Below are positions 5,780-59,135 of a stretch of 62,000 nucleotides of DNA, piece after piece. This DNA comes from Chiloscyllium plagiosum. Taxonomy: Eukaryota. The notes under the pieces were generated by a model. The model ran no database searches. It saw only the letters and a list, made by a program, of their open reading frames with translations, and was not told the origin of the DNA. The DNA is taken from assembly GCF_004010195.1 (NCBI RefSeq), contig NC_057753.1, positions 13,565,628 through 13,627,627 of the forward strand. The letters are read 5' to 3'. The stretch's first letter is position 1. Each line of letters opens with the position of its first letter. A program made the translations under genes and the position numbers.

Positions 5780-6560
5780 AACAGCAGATCCAACTCTTGA
5801 ATTCACGAATGAATTTGCTGATCTTTCCACAGGTGTGATGACTGAGTGAATTCTTCCAGGAAATCAGAACACTTAAATGGCCTCTCCCTGGTTTGAACTC
5901 ACTGGTGTGCATGCATACTGGAGAACTGAGTGAATACGTTCCCACATGCCGACCAGCTGGATAGTTGGCCCCAGTGTGAGCTCACTGGTGTCTCAGTGTA
6001 TCCATTGAAATATTCACAGAGTTTCTTTCCAGATTCAGAGCAGGCAAATGCCCTTTCTCCAGTGGCAGCAGGCTGACCTTTCTGCAGGGCAAATGAGTCA
6101 GTGAATTCATTCCCACATTCAGAGCTGGTGAATGGCCTCTCCCTTCACGCAGTCCTCACATTTTTACAATTTTTTTTTCATGTGACGGGTATTGAAAGCT
6201 CAAGAATCAGCTGAAGCTCAACAATCAGCCGGTATGGTGTCTCCCTACTGTGAATAGTACAATGCCTTTTCTGGCTGTGTCATAGGTTAAAGGCTTTCCA
6301 TGTCAGTTCACTGGGGAGGCGGAGGATGGGGTTCATCTAAGTGCTTTTCCAGTGCAATAGATGTTTAAAACCTTTAATGTAGACAGAACAAATCGACATT
6401 TCTCCATCTGTGGTTATTCAAGTTCTGGTTAGTTTTGTGTCTTTCTGCACATGATGTCTGTTTTGAGATACGCATCTGCAAATCTTAACCCCCTAACATC
6501 CTGCAGAAGGAATTATAAAGTATTAAATTCAGATTAGAAATTCAGAAGATAATTCTAGTT
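5780..6560 (-). pseudogene. C2H2 zinc-finger pseudogene
   Basis: About 5 decayed fingers (ERPF-x-C-SE-C-G...HQ) with frameshifts, preceded by the cluster-typical 5' exon segment and splice acceptor near 6505. Confidence 0.8.
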
Positions 6561-8254: not shown

Positions 8255-8515
8255 TGTGATTGGCTCGAGATCCAAAGTGCCTCCAAACCTCCAGCTTTTC
8301 CCATTGGTCACATTACTGAAGATGACAGTGTTTGATGAAACATGGAATCAGGTGGGGCTCTTGGACTATAAACCCGTAACATTTGCAAACTTCAGTCAAT
8401 AGAAAAATAGGGTGCTGCCTTCCTAATCCAATCACAGAGTGGGGGCTGTTCTGGCAATGACTGGCTGGAAAATCAGAGTGCTTTTAATCTTCCTCCATTT
8501 CCCATTGGTCAATCT
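8255..8515 (-). promoter_or_regulatory. Decayed ZNF promoter module (paired CCAAT boxes), two tandem copies
   Basis: GATTGGCTCGAGATCC...CCTCCAG...CCCATTGG at about 8258-8307 and again at about 8457-8510; similar to 39147-39200 and 59052-59113. Confidence 0.5.
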
Positions 8516-14080: not shown

Positions 14081-14939
14081 ATACATGCTGTGGCTGTGCT
14101 TTCCCTGAACTTTCTTATGCTCTCTAACAGAGGTAAAGAGATTTGTGAAGCCGGAGGAAATTACAGAGGTCAGAGGATTGTGAGGTTGGACGAAATTGCA
14201 GACACAAGGACAGTTGTGACTCAGAAGATTATACAGATATCGAGGATTGTCAGGTTGGAGGGGATTACCGAGGATTGTGTGTCTGGACGGGACTGCACCG
14301 AGAGGGAGAGTTGTGAGACTGCAGATTACTGTCTAAACAGCAGTGTGGTTTACTTACATGGACTACAGCAGTTCAAGAAGATTAATTACCACTTTCTCCA
14401 AATAAGTTAAAGATGGAGAATAAGTAATGGTCTGGGCAACAAAAACCACACCCCATGAATAAATTAAAACTAAAATAGGTTTCGGTTTTGTTGAGAGATA
14501 CCGGAATCTTTAGATAATTCTGCTGCCAGCTGAGACCGTGAAACGGAGATTTTGTTTTCAGGATATTTCATTTGCAAAGAGCATAGCAATTACCTTTGGT
14601 ATCCACACAACACAGATTTCAGACAATTGGCAAATCATGCCCGTTGAAAATGTGATGATTATTTCACTCAGCAAGTTCAGAGGGTCTGGAACAGTCTGAA
14701 CGGCAGTCGGGTGCAAATTCATTGGCTATTCTCAAAAGAAATTTGGAATTTAGTAAAACTTTGGTGGGCTGTGAGCAAAGGGCATGGGATTTGAGTAGAT
14801 TTGCAGCGTTTCTCGTGGTGAGAGAGTACAGTCAGAATGGGCTGAATGGACTCTGTGACACTGTCGCACTCCCTGTGGATGATGAAGTTCACCCCAGGGC
14901 AGAGACAGGGAAAGTCCCTCCTGTGACAAAACAATGGGC

Positions 14940-15435
14940 CCATCTGATTGACGTCGGGTCCCCGCCGAATAGGAACGGAGTGGGCGGGTCTGGAGGACCA
15001 TGCGGGTGCGGCTGGTCCTCCATCCAATGGGAGAGGAGGAGAGAGGCGGGGTCACCGTTAATGCTTCCGGCGCAGTGTCGCTGCGACTGGCGCCTGAGCG
15101 AACGCGTGAGAGGTAAGGGCATACAGCGGAGACTAGGAGAGAGAGAAAAAAAGGACTCAGTCTGGGTATGGGCGCTTTCACAAACGCTCGGTGTGGGCCG
15201 GTAGAGCTGAATTGTAAAATTTCGAATCCGCGTTTGAAGCAAACGGGAAAACGGCTGCGGGCCGCAGGCGGTGGTCAGCCGCGTGTCGCTGCCGCCATCT
15301 TTATTGGGGGCAAGGTGCAGGAACGAGCATGCGCATGTTCCTGATTGATTGCCTGGGGGCGGGACGCGCATGCGCATGTTCCTGAGTGACTGTCTGGGGG
15401 AGCGGGAAGCGCATGCGCATGTTCCTGACTGGGTG
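14940..15435 (+). promoter_or_regulatory. CpG-island promoter with non-coding first exon, probably of the 26-kb ZNF gene
   Basis: CpG-rich; TGACGTC, GC box, TGGAGGACC-N14-GGTCCTCCA, CCAAT (15024), CTTCCGG, donor AG|GTAAGG (GT at 15113), YY1-like GCCGCCATCTT, three NRF1-like GCATGCGCA; colinear with 58720-59135 (-). Confidence 0.75.
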
Positions 15436-25791: not shown

Positions 25792-25991
25792 CCCCCTACT
25801 TTTATTTTCAACTAAAAGTTTAATTTGCAGTTAGAGATCTCGAATGAAGCCACATCCAGTTCTGACAGTCACTCTGTTTATCTCGATCTATTTACCTCAG
25901 GATTTTGAACATTGAAGGAAAAAGCACCATTTCCACCAGGGAGAAACACGTATCATCTGTGCGCGGAAAGGTCTTGGAAGGTTAATCTGAA

Positions 25992-26957
25992 ATGTCCGTA
26001 CGTCAGCGCAGTCACACTGGGGAGAGACTGTGTAAATGTGAGGATTGTGGGAAGGGATTTATTTACCCATCCCAGCTGAAAATTCACCAACGCAGTCACA
26101 CTGGGGAGAAGCCATTCACCTGCTCTGATTGTGGGATGGGATTTGCTCTGTCATCCAACCTGCTCAAACACCGGCGGGTTCACACTGGAGAGAGGCCTTT
26201 CACCTGCTCTGTGTGTGGGATGGGATTCACTCAGACAACTCACCTGCTGAAACACCAGCTAGTTCACACTGGAGAGAGACCGTTCACTTGCTCCACGTGT
26301 GGAAAAGGATTCACTTTGTCGTCCAGCCTACTAATACATCAGCGAATTCACAATGGGGAGAGGCCATTCACTTGCTCCACGTGTGGTAAAGGATTCACTT
26401 TGTCATCGAGCTTGCTGAGACACCAGCGCGTTCACACTGGAGAGAAACCATTCACTTGCTCTGTGTGTGGGAAAGGATTCACTCAGTCATCCTACCTGTT
26501 GGAACACCAGCGGGTTCACACGACAGAGAGACCTTTCACCTGTTCTGAATGCGGGAAAGGATTCACTCGCTCGTCTAAACTACTGGTACACCAGCGAGTT
26601 CACACCGGAGAGAAACCGTTCACCTGTTCGGAATGTGGGAGGGGATTTACTCACTCCTCAAACCTGCTGAGACACCAGCGAGTTCACACTGGGGAGAGGC
26701 CATTCGCCTGTTCGGAGTGTGGGAAAGCATTCACTCAGACAATTCACCTCCTGATACACCAGCGTATTCACACTGGGGAGAAACCGTTTACCTGTTCTGT
26801 GTGTGGAAAAGGCTTTGCTGACTCGACCTCCCTGCTGATACACCAGCGAGTTCACACTGGGGAGAGGCCATTCGTTTGCTCCTTGTGCGGGAGGCGATTC
26901 ACTCGGTCATCCAAACTGTTAACGCACCAGCAAATCCACAAAAAAACCCACAGTTGA
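25992..26957 (+). CDS. C2H2 zinc-finger protein, 11 tandem fingers, no effector domain seen
   Basis: Intact ORF of CxxC-x12-HxxxH units with TGE(K/R)PF linkers; in-frame TAA 9 nt upstream of the ATG; AATAAA at about 27058. Confidence 0.9.
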
Positions 26958-37639: not shown

Positions 37640-38660
37640 CTTGTGAATTCGCTTATGTTTCTGCAGGTTTGATGATTCAAGACTTGCAACAGATGAATAG
37701 CTTAGCCCAGTATGAATTCGCTGGTGTATCTGGAGGTCAGTTGTATATCGTAATTGCTTCCGAACGCTTGCAAGATTTGAATGGTCCCTCCCCTGTGTGA
37801 ATTCTTTGGTGTCTCAGCAAGATTGATGACAGAGTTAATTCCATTCCACAATCTGAGCAAGTAAATGGCCTCTCTCCATTGTGAACACGCTGGTGCATCT
37901 ACAGACTGGATAACTGAGCGAATACCTTTCCGCATTTCGAGCAGGGGAATAGCCTGTCCTCAGTGAGAACTCGCTGGTGTCTCAGCAGGGTGAAATATTC
38001 ACGGAACTTTTTCCCACACTCAGAGAACGTGAACGACCTCTCTTCAGTGGCAATAGTCTTGTGTTTGCGCAGGGCAGATGAGTCAGAGAATTCCTCCCAC
38101 ATTCAGAGCAGGTGAATGGCCTCCCCTTGGTGTGACTTTGTTGGTGTAACTTCAGGGTTGACAGGGTATGGAATCCTTTCCCACAGTCCTCACATCACCA
38201 TGGTTTCTCCATGTTATGAGTGGCATGTATCTCTGTAAATCTCTGACCATAAGCTGAATCCTCATCCAGCAGAATGCAGATACAGTTCTTTGTGGTCTTC
38301 TTCAACCGGTCTCAGCATACAGAAACATTGTACATTCTTACTGTGAATGGTGCGATGTTTCTGAATGCTGAGACCGGTTGAAGCTACCTCCAGAATCATT
38401 TCACCAAAAGACACTCACTTGGGTGTATATGTTTCAGCCTTCTCCAGACAAGCAGATGGTTTAATAATTTTGAACGAGACATTCCTCCATATATGGTTCC
38501 AAGCTGACGATATTCAAGTCCCAGTCATTTCAATGACTCTTTCAGGCATTCTTGTGATGGTTGATTTGCGATTTATAAATCTTCCCTTCCTATAAAAGAG
38601 TTATAAAATTAATCACTTAGAGATTCTGGACACAAATCTAGTTTGTCTGGATTACTTTTT
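37640..38660 (-). pseudogene. C2H2 zinc-finger pseudogene
   Basis: MEKPW-type start near 38212, decayed fingers ([34 protein letters not shown]) with stops and frameshifts. Confidence 0.85.
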
Positions 38661-38873: not shown

Positions 38874-39309
38874 TAACAGATCCGTGACCCGCACCCTCCT
38901 TAGGTTGAATTCATTTCCTTTTAGTTGTTGCAAGTAAATAGCTTGAGCGCAGAAGTTTCTTTTTTAAAAAGAAGAAACCTAAAGACATAGTTGTGCTCAT
39001 AGATTTCGGACGGGAGGAGGTTTCAGTCTGGATGAAGCTCAATCTTTATTAGAGAGGAGAAGCAGGAGCAACAGCTTTACTGGGCAGAAATGAGCAGTTT
39101 CAGAACCTCATTGCTGCACGTCTGCACTCAGACCATAAGGGAGCTCTGATTGGCTGGAAATTGAAAATTCTTCTGGTCCTTTGGCATTTCCCATTAGTCA
39201 AATTACTGGATTGTGACGGAAAAAGGTGCAGAACACGAATCCATATGAGATTGCAAGAAACTGGGATCCATGACGTGACGTTCCAGCCAATAGAAAAAGA
39301 AGATGGAGT

Positions 39310-41090: not shown

Positions 41091-41707
41091 AACTGATCAA
41101 GTGTCTTGGATTGGGGGGGGGGGGGGGGGTCAGTTGTGTGGAAGCCAGCAAAATAGTCCAGACAAAAAGCAGTGAGGAAGGAAATTAGGGATAGTCTGCG
41201 AAGGAGAAGGGATTAGAAAAAAAAAATGTGTCAGAAAACTGAGGTGAGGTTGATGGAAATGGAAGGGAAAACATTTTTTAAGCAGAGTAAATGGACCGAA
41301 TAGCCTGATTGTTTGTTTTGTATTCGAATTATTTCATTCCAAGTTCTTTCTCCAGGCATTTCGAAGGTTGTTTTCGAATCCAGAAGGCGAGGTAATGCAT
41401 CGCGTCGAAATCTGAGAGCCATTCAGTTCATCAGAATCTGAACATCATCGGCCTCTGGATGTGGAGTGGGAAACGCCTGCCTCCAAGAAAAGAGTTTGAA
41501 CATCAGTTTCACTGCAAAAGCACCAAGACACACGGACTTGAGGAATAATATTCCACTGAACTGACTTTGGAAAGAGCAGTAACAAGTTACTCAGCCTGAA
41601 AATTAATTGCGCCATCCACAACACGGAGAGACCGCCCATGTATTTAGTCTGTGGAGATCAGTTTAAATCAATCGTTGATCCTGGAAGGAATCAAGGACAC
41701 TGACACC

Positions 41708-42856
41708 ATGGAAAAACCATGGAAGTGTGGAGATTGTGGGAAGGGATTCCGTTACCCTTCAGGATTGGAAACTCATCAACGCAGTCACACTGGGGAGAGG
41801 CCGTTCAGCTGCTCTGTGTGTGGGAAAGGATTCACTCAGTCATCCAGCCTCTATACACACCAGCACGTTCACACTGGGGAGAAGCCATTCACCTGCTCTG
41901 TGTGTGGGCAGGGGTTTAATGCTTTATCAACCCTCCGGACCCACGAGCAAGTTCACTCTGATGAGAGACCATTTAAATGTTCTGACTGTGAGAAGAGTTT
42001 TAAAAGCAGAAAGGATATATTGATACATCAACGCAGTCACACTGGGGAGAGACCGTTCATCTGTAAAGTGTGTGGGAAAGGGTTCACTCAGTCATCCCAC
42101 CTCTTGACACACCAACTTGTTCACACTGATGAGAGACCTTTTAAATGTTCTGATTGTTTGAAGAGCTTTAAAAGTAAAAAGGATTTACTGAACCACCAAC
42201 GTGCTTTGACTGGGGAGAGACCGTTCATCTGCTCAGTTTGTGGGAAGGGATTCACTAGTTCATCCTACCTTCTGACACATCAATTTGTTCACACTGATGA
42301 GAGACCTTTTGGATGTCCTGACTGTGAGAAGAAATTTAAATGCAGAAAGCATTTGCTCAAACACCAGTACACTCACACTGGAGAGAGGCCATTCTCCTGC
42401 TCTATCTGTGGGAAAGGATTCACTCGATTATCCCACCTGCTGAGACACCATCGAGTTCACACAGGGGAGAGGCCATTCTCGTGTGCTGACTGCAAACAGG
42501 AGTTTGTTGATTCATCCGACCTTCTGATCCACCAGCGAGTTCACAGCGGGGAGAGACCATACACCTGCTCGCTGTGTGGCAAGCGATTCACTCAGTCATC
42601 CCATCTCACGACACACCAACTTGTTCATACTGAAGAGAGACCCTTTCAATGTTCTGACTGCGAGAAGAGGTTCAAAAGTAAACAGAATCTGCTGAAACAT
42701 AAACAAATTCACACTGGAGATGGACCGTTCATCTGCTCCGTGTGTGGGAAAGGATTCGCTCAATCTCACAACCTCCTGAGACACCAGCAACTTCACTTGC
42801 GAGAGCAGCAATTGGATTCTGCTGTTATTGCTGATGTTAACTGCATCCAGGAGTGA
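41708..42856 (+). CDS. C2H2 zinc-finger protein, 13 fingers (finger 6 lacks its last His), no effector domain seen
   Basis: Intact ORF from ACCATGG (MEKPWKC...) to LDSAVIADVNCIQE*. Confidence 0.9.
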   Translation: MEKPWKCGDCGKGFRYPSGLETHQRSHTGERPFSCSVCGKGFTQSSSLYTHQHVHTGEKPFTCSVCGQGFNALSTLRTHEQVHSDERPFKCSDCEKSFKSRKDILIHQRSHTGERPFICKVCGKGFTQSSHLLTHQLVHTDERPFKCSDCLKSFKSKKDLLNHQRALTGERPFICSVCGKGFTSSSYLLTHQFVHTDERPFGCPDCEKKFKCRKHLLKHQYTHTGERPFSCSICGKGFTRLSHLLRHHRVHTGERPFSCADCKQEFVDSSDLLIHQRVHSGERPYTCSLCGKRFTQSSHLTTHQLVHTEERPFQCSDCEKRFKSKQNLLKHKQIHTGDGPFICSVCGKGFAQSHNLLRHQQLHLREQQLDSAVIADVNCIQE

Positions 42857-44920: not shown

Positions 44921-46189
44921 TTGAATTTTTAAAATTCCGACCATTGAAGGTTGTTTCTGCTGATGTTAATGACCTGTTATATTGAACTGGTGTTTAATAT
45001 TCTGGAGAAATGTTAATTAAATCAGCTTTGTTTCAAACACGTTGCTGTGGATTGTTGTGTTTCTGCCCCGAGTTTTCAATACCACCCGGAGCTCAGAAAG
45101 GACAGTCTTGGGGGAAGATCGTATGGCAGCAACAGACGTCAGCCTGGACACATCTTTCAGGTCACACTGAGGGGGACAAATGGCACTTTTGGTCTTTCTT
45201 GTCTCGCTTCTCCAACAGCAAAGCCTTGGTGTGGGTTAATCCTGCGGTAGTGTAAGACATGTGTCCCAACCACTGTCTTCCATGGCACAGAGCTCCTAGA
45301 CGTGGAACAGAACCTCATTTACAACTGGGTTTAGGGTCAGCGGACGAACAGTGAGTGCTGGAAATGTGGTTTAAATCAGAGATTAGTGTAAAGCTGTGAT
45401 CTGTTCCTGACTGGAAGTGAACCTGCAGGTTTGTTTCCCGTACATTGCTAAAAATAAAACACTGTTTTGCAATCCAAGCTGAGCTAGGAATTATCCTTCA
45501 TCAAGAGTATGACCAGTTGGGGAAGTTGGCAAAATATTAACTTTCATTTTTAAATAACCACATATAATACACCCATTGACTGGTCAGGAGGGTGTGCAAT
45601 AGGGGTTAGTGTTAGTGCTGGGAAGTGTTCCTTTTGAAGTAGTCTGACCTGAAACTGTCTACATTTAATTTATCACTTTCTAACGACATGGGACCTATCC
45701 CCATCTGTGTTCTTTTCAGTGTTGCAGGATTTGATTTCTCTTTTTTTCTTAAATCTCTGTGAAGTCGTGTTCTTGTTGTAACACTGAAATCCTAAGGGTT
45801 TGAATTCTTTAAAAAACTCTATCCCCATTGAGTACAGGAGTATTTGACTGGCTTTCAGTACTTATGGTATCAGTAAACGAGGACCTTGCAAGGTGTTTCT
45901 GAAAAATGTGCTGGAGAAACTCAGCAGGTCTGCCAGCACCGTGGCAAAACAGATAGTGTTTCAATTCCAATTATTCCTCTGCACAGAGGCTTCCAGATCT
46001 GCTGAATTTCTTCAACAGTTTTACTTATTATTGCAGCACACAGATGGACAGTCTCTATCCAGTGTGAATATGTGCATGTTGTGATCATTTAAAAACCAAG
46101 TCCTCCAGCTACAAAAGTATTACTACTATTTTAACTGCCAAAGACAAATGTTCATTCTTTGGTGTTAACAAGAGAAAACCTCCTTCAAC

Positions 46190-46930
46190 TGAACTTGTTC
46201 GTGAATTCGCTGGTGACTCACCAGGGATGACTAAGTGAATACATTACTTTCCCACAGTCAGAGCAGGTGAAAAGTTTCTCTCCATTGTGAACTCGGTGTT
46301 ACCAGGTTGGATGCCTGACTGAATCCCTTTCCACACACTGAGCGGTTGAACGGTTTCTCTCCACTGGTGTCTCAGCAGATCAGTTGTGAGAGTGAAATCC
46401 ATTCCACACATGGAGCAAGTGAACGGTTTCTCACCAGTATGAACTCACTGGTGTCTTTGCAGGGAGGATGGCTGAATGAATCCCTTCCCTGACTGGGAGC
46501 AGCTGAACAGTTTCTCCCGAGTGTGAACTTGCTGATGCATCCGAAGTGTGGATGACGAAATGACTCCCTTCCCGCACAGAGATCAAATGAATGGTCTCTC
46601 TCCAGTGTCAACAGGTTGGATGATGGTGTGAATCTCTTTCCCCCAGTCAGAGCAGGTGAATGCCTTCTCCCCAGTGTGACTGTGTTGGTGCGTTAGCTGG
46701 GATGGGTAAAAAAAAACCCCTTCACACAATTCCCATATTTCCACTGTCACTCTCCTGTGTATCTGCAATGGTGTTTGGACATTGTGAGATAAATGCTGGC
46801 AGACTCTGGCGCACACACAGTGGGTGTGACGTACTTTTTCCTTCCATGTTCAAAATCCTTTCGATTAACAGAATGCCTGTCAGACCTGGATGCTTACTCA
46901 TACGAATCTGCTAGTTGCAAATTAACCTTT
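46190..46930 (-). pseudogene. C2H2 zinc-finger pseudogene, about 7 decayed fingers
   Basis: FYPSQLTHQHSHTGEKAFTCSDWGK and further frameshifted fingers. Confidence 0.85.
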
Positions 46931-53759: not shown

Positions 53760-54920
53760 TAAGTGCTTTCACAGGATGAATCCTGCCTGTTGTTAATGTG
53801 GACAATAGCAGCAGAATCAGAACCCTGCCTTCACTTATGAACGCACTGACATTTCCGCAGGTATCACAACTGAGGCATCCGTTCCTTCACATGGAACACG
53901 GGAACAGTTCCTTGCCAGTTTGAACGTGGGGATTCTGAACAAAGTGGCACTGCACCCAAAACATTGACTCTGTGCTCTTCCTCCCCAGATGCTGCCCTAC
54001 CAGCTGAGTCTCTCCAGTAATTCCTGTTTTTGATTTGGATAACTGTCTGAAATGCTTCCAAAAGGAAGAGCCGCCGAACTGTGTTTCTCCTTAGTGTGAA
54101 CTCAGTGGTATGACAGGAGAACAAACAACTGAGTGAACCCCTTCCCACAACCAAGTCGGGTGAATGGTCTTGTCTACTCTGTGAACCCCTTGGTGTCCAA
54201 TCAGGTCGAATGTTTGAGTGAATCCTTTCCCACACACGGTCTCCCCCTGTGCGAAGTCATTGGGGTGCAGCGTGGCTGGATGAATTGTTGAATTCCTTTC
54301 CCACTGTAAATGCAGTTGCAGGGCCTCTGCTCGGTGCGAACTGTCTGCTGTGACATCCGGGGGAGATGTCTGAGGAGATCTCTTCCCACATACAGAATAG
54401 ATAAATTGATTACCCCCAACGGGACCACATCAGTAACTTCCCAGCCAAGACGAAGATGTTAACCCTTTACCACAGTGCTCACATTTCCACATTTTGTTCA
54501 TGGTGCCCGTGTTTCTGTCTCTCTCCAGGTTGGACAATCAGATGAAGCCCTGATCCGACGTGTAACACAAACACTGTGTCTCCCCACTGTGAATGATGTA
54601 GTAATTTTTAAAAACTGATTACACAGTCACTGCTGCCCCAGTATCCTCTTAGATTGTGTGCCTGTTGCTGATTCTCACTGATTATTTGATTTGCTCTCCC
54701 GCAGACAAAATAAACACTCCTCCTTCAACTTTTCAAGATCAATGGTATTCAAGTCCTGATGGATCAAGTCGCTCTGTTGACGAGTGACATGAGGTTTGAT
54801 TTGAGATTCTGAACAGGGAACCCTCCCCTTCTGGTATCCTGTAAAGGAGTTTACTCAAGTCCACAGTGACAGTCGAGGGTAGGTATTCAGAAAGATAATT
54901 TCAGTTTTTAATAAAAGGAT
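53760..54920 (-). pseudogene. C2H2 zinc-finger pseudogene with a PLE pLTR insertion (about 53932-54032)
   Basis: Minus strand ACCATGAACAAAATGTGGAAATGTGAG start near 54502, decayed fingers, cluster-typical 5' exon segment at 54700-54900. Confidence 0.8.
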
Positions 54921-55554: not shown

Positions 55555-56481
55555 TCACTTATGAATTCGCTCGTGTGACATTAGGTTGACGGACTGAGTG
55601 AATCCCTTCCCACACACAGAGCAGGTGAACGGTCTCTCCCCAGAGTGAACTCGCTGGTGCACAATGAGGGTGGATTTCCTCCTGAAATTCTTCCCGCAGG
55701 TAATGCAGCTGAAAGGCTTTTCTCCAGTGTGAACGCGCTGGTGTGTCGACAGATTGATCTTCTGAGCAAACCCCTTGCCACATTCGGAGCAGGTGAAAGG
55801 TTTTTCTCCAGTGTGAACCCGCTGGTGTATGAGCAAGCTGGCTGATCGAGTGAATCCCTGCCCACATTCAGAGCAGGTGAACGGTTTCTCTCCACTATGA
55901 ATTCTCTGGTGTGTCAACACATGGGCTCTCTGGGCAAATCCCTTGCCACACAAGGGGCACGTGAACGGCTTTTCTCCAGTGTGAACCCGCTGGTGGATGA
56001 GCAGTTTGGATGACTGCGTGAATCCTTTCCCGCACAGGGAGCAAGTGAATGGCCTCTCCCTGGTGTGAGTGAATTGGTGTACAATGAGAACAGAAGAGTG
56101 TCTGAACCTCTTACCACAGGAGGTGCAGCTGAATGGCTTCTGCTCAGTATGAATTCGCTGGTGTGATCGAAGGCCAGATGAACGAGTAAATCTCTTCCCA
56201 CACACAGAGCAGATGAACGGCTTCTCCCCAGTGTGAACTCGCTGGTGCTTATTCACTTCAGAAGAAGATCTGAACCTTTTTGAACAGCAGCTGCAGCTGA
56301 ATGGCCTCTCCTCGGTATGAATTCGCTGGTGTGCCACCAATTTGTTTGACTCAATAAATCCTTTGCCACACATGGAGCAGTTGAATGGCTTCTCCCCAGT
56401 GTGAATGCGTTGATGGATTTCCAGCCGGGAGGGGTACTTGAATGCCTTCCCGCAGTCCTCACATTTCCACAAATTCTCCAT
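55555..56481 (-). CDS. C2H2 zinc-finger protein, 11 tandem fingers, no effector domain seen
   Basis: Intact ORF from ACCATGG (MENLWKCEDCGK...); acceptor TTTTCCAG| at 56808; upstream CpG-island promoter. Confidence 0.9.
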   Translation of the reverse strand: MENLWKCEDCGKAFKYPSRLEIHQRIHTGEKPFNCSMCGKGFIESNKLVAHQRIHTEERPFSCSCCSKRFRSSSEVNKHQRVHTGEKPFICSVCGKRFTRSSGLRSHQRIHTEQKPFSCTSCGKRFRHSSVLIVHQFTHTRERPFTCSLCGKGFTQSSKLLIHQRVHTGEKPFTCPLCGKGFAQRAHVLTHQRIHSGEKPFTCSECGQGFTRSASLLIHQRVHTGEKPFTCSECGKGFAQKINLSTHQRVHTGEKPFSCITCGKNFRRKSTLIVHQRVHSGERPFTCSVCGKGFTQSVNLMSHERIHK

Positions 56482-56979
56482 GGTGTGGATGTATTTGTAC
56501 CTCTTCAGCTGAAGGATTAGTTAGAAGATTGTCCAAACATGTACAGTCTCTCCCTGCTCGAATGGTGATCTCTTAACTGTGTGAATGATTGGAGTTCCTT
56601 TCACTGTCTGTATGCTGGCAACACTCACTTATGACGCGCCTGCCTTGGTGCTTTTCCAGTCGCACTGATGTTTGTAGTCTTTTCTCCAAAAGACAGAACA
56701 AAAGTTTCTCCTTACATACTCAAAGGCTGGCGATATTCAGATCCTGGTGAACTGATGACTCTGTTGAACCTTGACAGGACATTTTCAAATCTGTGCAATT
56801 GCTTCCCCTGGAAAACGAGATGACAAAAGCCAGTGAAGATTAGAACATCAAAAAAGACAGTTCCAGTTTCTATGGAGTGGTTTTTCCTCTCTTTTTTTTG
56901 TCTAGTGGTTGTGGGTGAATACTCTCTGCCCATCTTCTAGCATTTCCTTCCTTACCAGAGGTCAGACCCTCATTGAAAC

Positions 56980-58719: not shown

Positions 58720-59135
58720 CCTGTGACGTAATGCTACGCATGCGCCCTGATGCACTTTTCCCACAATAAAGATGGCCGCCCTCAATCGGGCACTGCCCCG
58801 CTTTAGGCCTGCCGCCATTTTCTGGTCGGCCTCAAACCATAGCCTCAGGCGTCCCGTTCCGAGCGGGAGGATTTCCCAGCGTTTAACAAAGCTGTTGAAT
58901 CCGTTCTCACTCTTGTCGCTCTCGACTTATTCTCACCTTTGAACGACTCGGCTCTCCCACAAGCCCAGACCTGAGTTAGAACGACGTTGCCGCTTGCGCA
59001 CGGGGACACCGACGTGGCGGACGGTCACGTGCCCAGCCGTCCGTTCACTCCGATTGGCTGGAGGACCTGCGGCTTCCACGCGGTCCTCCAGGCCCGCCCC
59101 CTGCTCCCATTGGTTGGGTGTTGCCTTCAATGACG
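58720..59135 (-). promoter_or_regulatory. CpG-island promoter with non-coding first exon of the 56-kb ZNF gene
   Basis: Minus strand CCAAT, GC box, TGGAGGACC-N14-GGTCCTCCA, CCAAT, donor AAAG|GTGAGA (GT at 58936), then YY1-like and NRF1-like sites. Confidence 0.8.

Follow-up and report, generated by a model that had tools for sequence, protein, structure and literature searches.

A paired nine-base word beside GC and CCAAT boxes at zinc-finger gene promoters of Chiloscyllium plagiosum

Two C2H2 zinc-finger (ZNF) genes of the cartilaginous fish Chiloscyllium plagiosum have, in the CpG islands upstream of them, the same nine-base word written twice in opposite directions, and the question that this locus raises is what keeps the two words in place. 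To our knowledge, the co-activation of large tandem zinc-finger clusters is poorly understood, mammals included. An earlier note on this DNA had pictured a cluster-specific cis-element that would bind a dimeric factor, possibly a ZNF protein of the cluster itself, and act with NF-Y; a domesticated transposon end was its other suggestion. On balance, we favor the reading that the word GGTCCTCCA is the putative half-site of a sequence-specific factor that would bind beside NF-Y and SP/KLF factors, in a cassette that spread by duplication. Judged from the sequence, the word is a family-specific promoter word of the NF-Y-composite type, and the evidence that it is under constraint is good.

Two cassettes in the window

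The window, that is the whole stretch of 62,000 nucleotides that was analyzed (G000:C44:13565628-13627627), contains two intact cassettes. In cassette 1, on the plus strand, arm 1 (TGGAGGACC, 14991-14999) and arm 2 (GGTCCTCCA, 15014-15022) are exact inverted copies that enclose a 14-nt spacer (15000-15013), the final 5-6 nt of which (GCGGCT) are partly retained among paralogs. Cassette 2 (59059-59090) is on the minus strand, with arm 1 at 59082-59090 and arm 2 at 59059-59067, again exact and again 14 nt apart, and the letters of its spacer differ from those of the first. The perfect arms and the equal but unlike spacers had both been described before, and both descriptions are accurate. This exact form has two matches in the window (shuffle mean 0.04), and no third was found anywhere in the 62,000 nt when up to three mismatches were allowed.

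The neighbors of the arms also agree with the earlier description. A GC box of the SP/KLF type adjoins arm 1 (14982-14990, plus strand; 59091-59099, minus strand), and a CCAAT box of the NF-Y type begins 1 nt past arm 2 (15024-15028, plus strand; 59053-59057, minus strand). The second CCAAT-like box, said to lie about 56-58 nt upstream of the main one, is a true CCAAT at 56 nt in cassette 2 (59109-59113, minus strand) and a degenerate CGAAT at 58 nt in cassette 1 (14966-14970, plus strand). The upstream end of cassette 1 carries TGATTGAC (14945-14952, plus strand), a DECA-like word predicted from published geometry to bind PBX/PREP-type proteins (bioRxiv 10.64898/2026.02.16.706105).

Both cassettes are inside CpG islands and upstream of intact, same-strand ZNF open reading frames (ORFs) of 11 fingers each. 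From strand and position, the likely target of cassette 1 is the ORF at 25986-26957 (plus strand) and that of cassette 2 the ORF at 55555-56520 (minus strand), which has an acceptor-like site near 56808. The CpG island of the third intact ZNF gene (41648-42856) does not contain the arm element. Four degenerate ZNF relics, all on the minus strand, accompany the three intact ORFs (5806-6309, 37640-38455, 46168-46774 and 53890-54723).

Splice-donor-like words 90-130 nt downstream of the cassettes suggest short non-coding first exons. The prediction for cassette 1 (15064-15117, plus strand) goes with an ETS-like word (15064-15070) and the donor-like word (15111-15117), and that for cassette 2 (58932-59031, minus strand) with an E-box (59026-59031) and its donor-like word (58932-58938). 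Farther down, about 280-400 nt past arm 2 of cassette 1, are GCCATCTT and three copies of GCGCATGC, words of the YY1 and NRF1 types, respectively (15294-15418, plus strand); the same words of cassette 2 are similarly positioned (58737-58776, minus strand). One single-cell polyA run, of which about 2/100 was read, had no depth over 14700-15277 and is uninformative on 5' ends.

Decayed versions of the cassette had also been claimed, at 8258, 8457 and 39147, and here the outcome is mixed. The three places (8255-8310, 8455-8511 and 39145-39200, all on the minus strand) have in common the word TGACYAATGGGAAA, which has three matches in the window (shuffle mean 0.10, for a pattern picked post hoc), and each has two CCAAT-like boxes at a distance of 44 nt. 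However, a profile of 46 cassettes from which the window copies had been left out matched none of the three at E<=1, and the same profile recovered both intact cassettes (58 and 63 bits). The first place is upstream of the minus-strand relic at 5806-6309, the third is upstream of the one at 37640-38455, and the second appears to be another copy. Since the shared word is accompanied by the 44-nt CCAAT spacing of a short variant without a GC box, which is intact elsewhere, it is plausible that all three are decayed cassettes of this short type. The variant itself occurs at G000:C44:11.52-11.56 Mb (L060 and L215) and on contig C101710. Its 11-nt spacer contains an ETS-like CCGGAAG, and it stands directly upstream of a ZNF ORF whose reading frame stays open through the cassette.

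Copies elsewhere in the genome and their ZNF neighbors

The earlier note had proposed a genome-wide pattern search, and this search indicates that the element extends well beyond the window and is concentrated in ZNF clusters. The full cassette has the order DECA-like word, CCAAT, GC box, arm, spacer, arm, CCAAT, often with a second GC box and an E-box; its spacer is 10-16 nt, and its CCAAT boxes are mostly 55-61 nt apart. Exact head-to-head arm pairs with spacers of 4-30 nt number 119 in the whole genome, versus one for the reversed control, and most are on the ZNF-cluster contigs C44 and C45, on C8 and on unplaced contigs. A GC box followed by the arm occurs 118 times (control 0), never on C1-C7. 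The arm, one base and CCAAT occur together 349 times (control 52), which bears out the part of the NF-Y proposal that concerns neighborhood, the arm lying directly beside the CCAAT box; NF-Y binding itself is predicted. Contigs C1-C6 have four arm-plus-CCAAT matches, all in CpG-poor sequence, and no GC box with an arm. The count of arms in direct repeat (336, control 199) is dominated by satellites among the matches listed and is uninformative, and a search of metagenome contigs, which gave 0 matches, has no bearing on the range of the element.

Spacer length is less regular than the window would suggest. Among the exact pairs, there is one with a spacer of 4 nt, five with 5 nt, three with 10 nt, 22 with 11 nt, 59 with 12-13 nt (at least 39 of them 12 nt among the matches listed), 21 with 14 nt, three with 15 nt, one with 16 nt and four with 24-30 nt. 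Thus, the idea of a fixed 14-nt spacer does not hold: lengths from 4 to 16 nt are found, and 14 nt accounts for only 21 of the 119, 11 of these on C44 and six on C45 (control 0). The peak at 12 nt is largely due to a single family, duplicated on C8 and unplaced contigs. The modal length is 14 nt on C44/C45 and among flank clusters (12 of 23 clusters, one of which holds 79 of the 110 pairs), and 14 nt is also found in eight of the 16 two-arm sites of the arm-blind search described next.

That search used only a GC box, 28-35 nt and a CCAAT box as its anchor and gave 95 sites genome-wide. On C44-46, arm 2 is present in 20 of the 22 sites and arm 1 in 16 of the 22 (up to two mismatches); on C1-C43, arm 2 is present in seven of the 52 as counted by eye, a comparison that leaves out 21 sites on unplaced contigs. 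Clear cassettes make up five of these seven (C8, C16 and C37); the other two are borderline, with two mismatches and no first arm. Most GC-box/CCAAT pairs on ordinary contigs are without the arm word; therefore, NF-Y and SP do not demand it. A second anchor, the CCAAT box alone (RCCAATS), was applied to 862 kb of contiguous sequence, namely C44:4.74-5.14 Mb, C45:8.8-9.0 Mb, the window and the 200 kb to its left. The arm precedes 22 of the 39 CpG-rich boxes versus one of the 458 elsewhere. The ZNF-poor 200 kb to the left of the window have no profile match.

In the three ZNF regions, 16 of the 57 non-coding CpG islands carry the strict half-module (mean 0.4 and maximum 1 in 20 shuffles). These figures, together with the uneven result of the arm-blind search (20/22 versus 7/52), uphold the view of the element as cluster-specific. 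As for the genes, the nearest upstream island carries the strict half-module for 15 of the 44 intact ZNF ORFs; 29 of the 44, about two thirds of those examined, have no strict match, and the cluster-wide share may be lower still because the first two of the three regions were selected for containing exact matches. The cassette points towards its assigned gene in nine of the 15 cases and away from it in six, two of these at shared divergent islands.

The downstream words also recur. The word AAGATGGC is present in 35 of the 57 cluster islands, where the YY1- and NRF1-type words top the 8-mer enrichment. The YY1-type word GCCATYTT, accompanied by NRF1-type words, follows 25 of 50 cassettes at 250-350 nt, nearly always in the same orientation (25 versus 3). 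These words belong to the inherited promoter unit. They lie in the predicted first intron and may form a convergent antisense promoter.

Copies outside C44/C45 appear to tell of duplication. Those on C8 form families that align over kilobases at 80-96% and carry the entire promoter unit, with its GCCATCTT and its GCGCATG-like words some 300 nt farther down. For many C44 copies, mutual alignment is limited to a core of 50-90 nt. An intact ZNF ORF within 10 kb was found at none of the 10 sites on C8, C16 and C27, and degenerate ZNF sequence at two of the 10. Farther away, the sites at C8:23.87 Mb and C8:59.2 Mb have degenerate ZNF exons at a distance of 20-30 kb, and the C27 site has an intact ZNF ORF on the same strand 21.6 kb off; five other sites had neither in the stretch examined. 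Ten of 20 further 10-kb stretches around sites contained ZNF sequence. We read the off-cluster sites as probable duplicated cluster fragments, many of them orphaned. Many exact C8 copies without an intact ZNF ORF within 10-30 kb retain perfect arms, for which recent duplication alone suffices.

A Pfam scan of 150 of the 387 unmasked ORFs near the C8 sites revealed no host gene family; what it did give was one sub-threshold match and, 8 kb from one site, gag-like pieces. These broken pieces (L083:8114-9142, about 32.10 Mb on G000:C8; Gag_p30 at E 5e-11, Gag_p12 below the cut-off) are the relic of an endogenous retrovirus and lie roughly 8 kb from a copy of the cassette. An origin of the C8 families from LTRs was considered and rejected, in a comparison made without a library search: the homology runs for kilobases or stops at other repeats or gaps, the unit shares its first-exon words and those farther down with the ZNF promoters, and four sites have degenerate ZNF exons nearby.

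Several arrangements of the cassette deserve a record of their own. A 59-kb layout resembling an inverted duplication (G000:C8:59223016-59282059, L161-L166) has two cassettes in facing orientation; beyond each of them come a single-arm promoter, at 10 kb, and a degenerate ZNF exon, at about 22 kb. Tandem cassette arrays are found at G000:C44:485492-486038 (L054-L057) and C44:3998633-3998878, with units of 49 nt that have 5-nt spacers and units of 33 nt that consist of arm and CCAAT. At G000:C44:4786288 and 4916051, cassettes with a damaged CCAAT box are aimed, from 0.6-1.2 kb, at the 3' end of the adjacent opposite-strand ZNF gene; possibly, they are relic promoters of lost sister genes. Finally, minisatellites with units of 28-36 nt repeat the arm word directly (G000, C22:57564789-57569978, C7:94972818-94981296 and C39:21100736-21102189), and the unit on C39 also includes a GC box.

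What is conserved and what might conserve it

Whether the arms are better kept than the spacer, a check that had been suggested earlier, can be answered from the 22 arm-blind sites on C44-46. Identity to the commonest base is 0.87 for arm 2 and 0.76 for arm 1, versus 0.50 for the first five bases of the spacer and 0.73 for its last five. The CCAAT-side arm is thus the better kept, and its conservation extends into the spacer. The retention of the last five bases means that part of the contrast between arms and spacer reflects shared ancestry, and also that the actual site may extend further and be lopsided. Each arm, followed along its own strand, runs into RCC, the start of the GC box or of the CCAAT box. 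Single arms are frequent: seven of the 19 arm-plus-CCAAT sites and three of the nine GC-plus-arm sites have no partner arm, and a direct-repeat module of single arms with other spacings is found at C44:4799133-4799347.

Among 106 distinct pairs, 112 changes are one-sided, six are mirrored and three are doubled but unpaired, and the stem is not extended into the spacer beyond permutation, which implies that the sequence is kept and not the pairing. Mirrored changes do exceed their permuted number (6 versus 2.0, P about 0.01, relatedness not corrected). The copy of cassette 1 in organism B differs at 48 and 47 positions over 14700-15391 (two runs of one study), about 7% divergence. One change, 14989 T>G, moves the GC box towards the consensus and another, at 15001, is in the spacer; the arms and the CCAAT box have none among the changes listed, a weak observation, as 7% divergence would leave 18 bases unchanged in about a quarter of cases.

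We propose that one ancestral ZNF promoter bore the cassette, that duplications of genes and segments spread it and that selection for protein binding preserved the arms while the flanks became unalignable. One half-site would adjoin the SP/KLF-type box and its mirrored copy the CCAAT box of NF-Y, and the candidate factor, NF-Y and an SP/KLF factor would together drive the ZNF genes. The arms would be read independently, the CCAAT-side arm mattering most, and the pair would provide two-site occupancy rather than an obligate rigid dimer. The main rival, which we think rather improbable, holds that the arms have no factor of their own and are filler inherited from one ancestral promoter, kept by duplication, gene conversion and mild flank preferences of NF-Y and SP/KLF. 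Several observations agree with it: the order of motifs is common to the copies out to about 350 nt downstream, as expected if all copies derive from one promoter unit; on C8, alignments extend over kilobases (80-96%), and perfect arms persist at orphan copies; the spacer retains an ancestral consensus, notably at its end; the terminal CA of the arm is the human NF-Y motif's own flank; and the CCAAT-side arm falls within NF-Y's contact zone of about 30 bp. Nevertheless, filler would not readily explain arms at 76-87% identity where the flanks are unalignable and identity in the first spacer bases is down to 50%, nor GC-box/CCAAT pairs on ordinary contigs that mostly do without the rest of the word, nor the retention of the arm in the single-arm tandem modules of C44:4799133-4799347, whose spacings differ.

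The other explanations differ mainly in what they make of the pair. A dimeric factor with fixed geometry, as the earlier note had it, does not fit the single arms at seven of the 19 sites, the variable spacer and the unequal conservation of the arms. One dimeric factor with a flexible linker, which needs head-to-head arms and binds best at 14 nt, is unlikely as well, even though head-to-head pairs outnumber tail-to-tail pairs (119 versus 17, the latter mostly tandem cassette repeats), spacers of 11-14 nt make up 102 of the 119, 14 nt is the mode on C44/C45, in the arm-blind sites (8/16) and in the flank clusters (12/23), and mirrored changes are in slight excess. Descent from one cassette explains the orientation and the modal spacing equally well, perfect arms also occur with spacers of 4, 5, 10, 15 and 16 nt, across the 11-14 nt range alone the arms turn relative to each other through about 100 degrees, and, besides the frequent single arms, arm 1 is the faster to decay. 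Template switching can correct one arm of an inverted repeat on the other. Upkeep of that kind, or a function of a hairpin or cruciform, would suit the six mirrored substitutions (2.0 by permutation) and the foldability of both window copies (-11.8 and -12.7 kcal/mol, DNA parameters); we consider it very unlikely, given that the 112 one-sided changes outweigh the mirrored ones, that stem extension is not beyond chance, that single arms persist and that the arm sequence does not drift between lineages, although selection on structure alone would permit drift. Short perfect repeats facing inward around a variable interior are also what the ends of a tiny or domesticated DNA transposon would look like. 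However, a flanking direct repeat of at least 4 nt was found at none of the 106 pairs (duplications of 2-3 nt are outside this count), most copies have one GC box and CCAAT box setting in common instead of independent insertion sites, the large contigs C1-C6 are nearly empty, and the copies are not dispersed. The transposon end suggested earlier can therefore be given hardly any credence as a mobile element, though one ancient insertion into the ancestral promoter may lie behind the arms.

Returning to the half-site reading, the nature of the factor is a matter for more tentative statements. It is possible, but we would not lean on it, that one dedicated DNA-binding protein reads the arm word beside NF-Y and SP at 100 or more ZNF promoters and so acts as a family-wide switch of ZNF clusters in cartilaginous fish; with the same reserve, the candidates would be a conserved zinc-finger protein, a transposase-derived factor or one of the cluster's own ZNF proteins. 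Autoregulation by a cluster ZNF, which had been raised before, gained nothing from a crude recognition-code screen of 56 finger arrays, a weak test that gave no candidate run.

Known promoter elements and wider meaning

The cassette resembles several known systems and is identical to none of those compared. Like other NF-Y composite elements, it has, in a CpG-island promoter, a canonically flanked CCAAT box and a partner word at a fixed distance (arm, 1 nt, CCAAT, the one distance counted genome-wide; 22/39 versus 1/458). ERSE-II, ATTGG-N-CCACG, is bound by NF-Y with ATF6 and has the geometry of arm 2, with the partner site 1 nt 5' of CCAAT; the partner words differ (CTCCA here, CGTGG there before N-CCAAT), and the cassette has an additional mirrored copy at the GC box. 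The site of HINFP has the core GGTCCG. HiNF-P/HINFP binds the histone H4 subtype-specific element (PMC5706932), and an H4 promoter primer contains this core (PMC3128520). The two elements are alike as gene-family-specific promoter words of a clustered multigene family, and they have the letters GGTCC in common; here, however, the genes are ZNF genes, and the base after GGTCC is T in 14 of 16 cases, C in two and G in none. Both HINFP/H4 and ERSE-II were rejected as the identity of the arm word for mismatch with their cores. The tRNA primer-binding site, REST, NFI, GLI, PRDM10/15, the SMAD GC site and nuclear-receptor repeats, compared by motif, do not fit either.

The human NF-Y motif is given as cc_CaGCCAATcaG. 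NF-Y contacts roughly 30 bp (bioRxiv 10.64898/2026.02.16.706105). The same source describes a DECA-CCAAT composite bound by PBX/PREP, NF-Y and Sp2, with the word GAnnGAC at a canonical gap of 11, 12 being tolerated in models. Some cassettes, including that at 14945-14952 of the window, likewise have a DECA-like word ahead of the first CCAAT. Seven of 46 cassettes have a gap of 12 nt, and no such word was detected in the other 39; the first CCAAT of the window copy is degenerate, and the likeness concerns the upstream end of the cassette and not the arms. Human double-CCAAT modules bound by NF-Y fall into classes of 19, 26/36 and 43 bp with GC boxes between the CCAAT boxes (PMC4889920). They share with the cassette two same-sense CCAAT boxes around an Sp-type site in promoters, and the 43-bp class, for which the sections of that paper drawn on here name no partner factor, is close to the 44 nt of the short variant. 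The main variant differs from them in its CCAAT boxes, about 55-61 nt apart, and in its inverted pair of 9-mers; the string 'palindrom' is absent from the main text of that paper. The literature searches, which were thin on subscription journals and had no access to supplements, turned up no description of the element.

In conclusion, the arm word is nearly absent from the rest of a 3.6-Gb genome and has a fixed place beside the NF-Y box, and its natural one-arm, two-arm and varied-spacer versions offer a ready bait for pull-downs and a ready set of variants for reporters. If there is no dedicated factor, then the element would still mark the birth and death of promoters in ZNF clusters. If there is one, then the ZNF clusters of a deep vertebrate lineage would have a regulator at the family level, and a factor acting family-wide would be comparable to the promoter elements of the histone and MHC class II genes.
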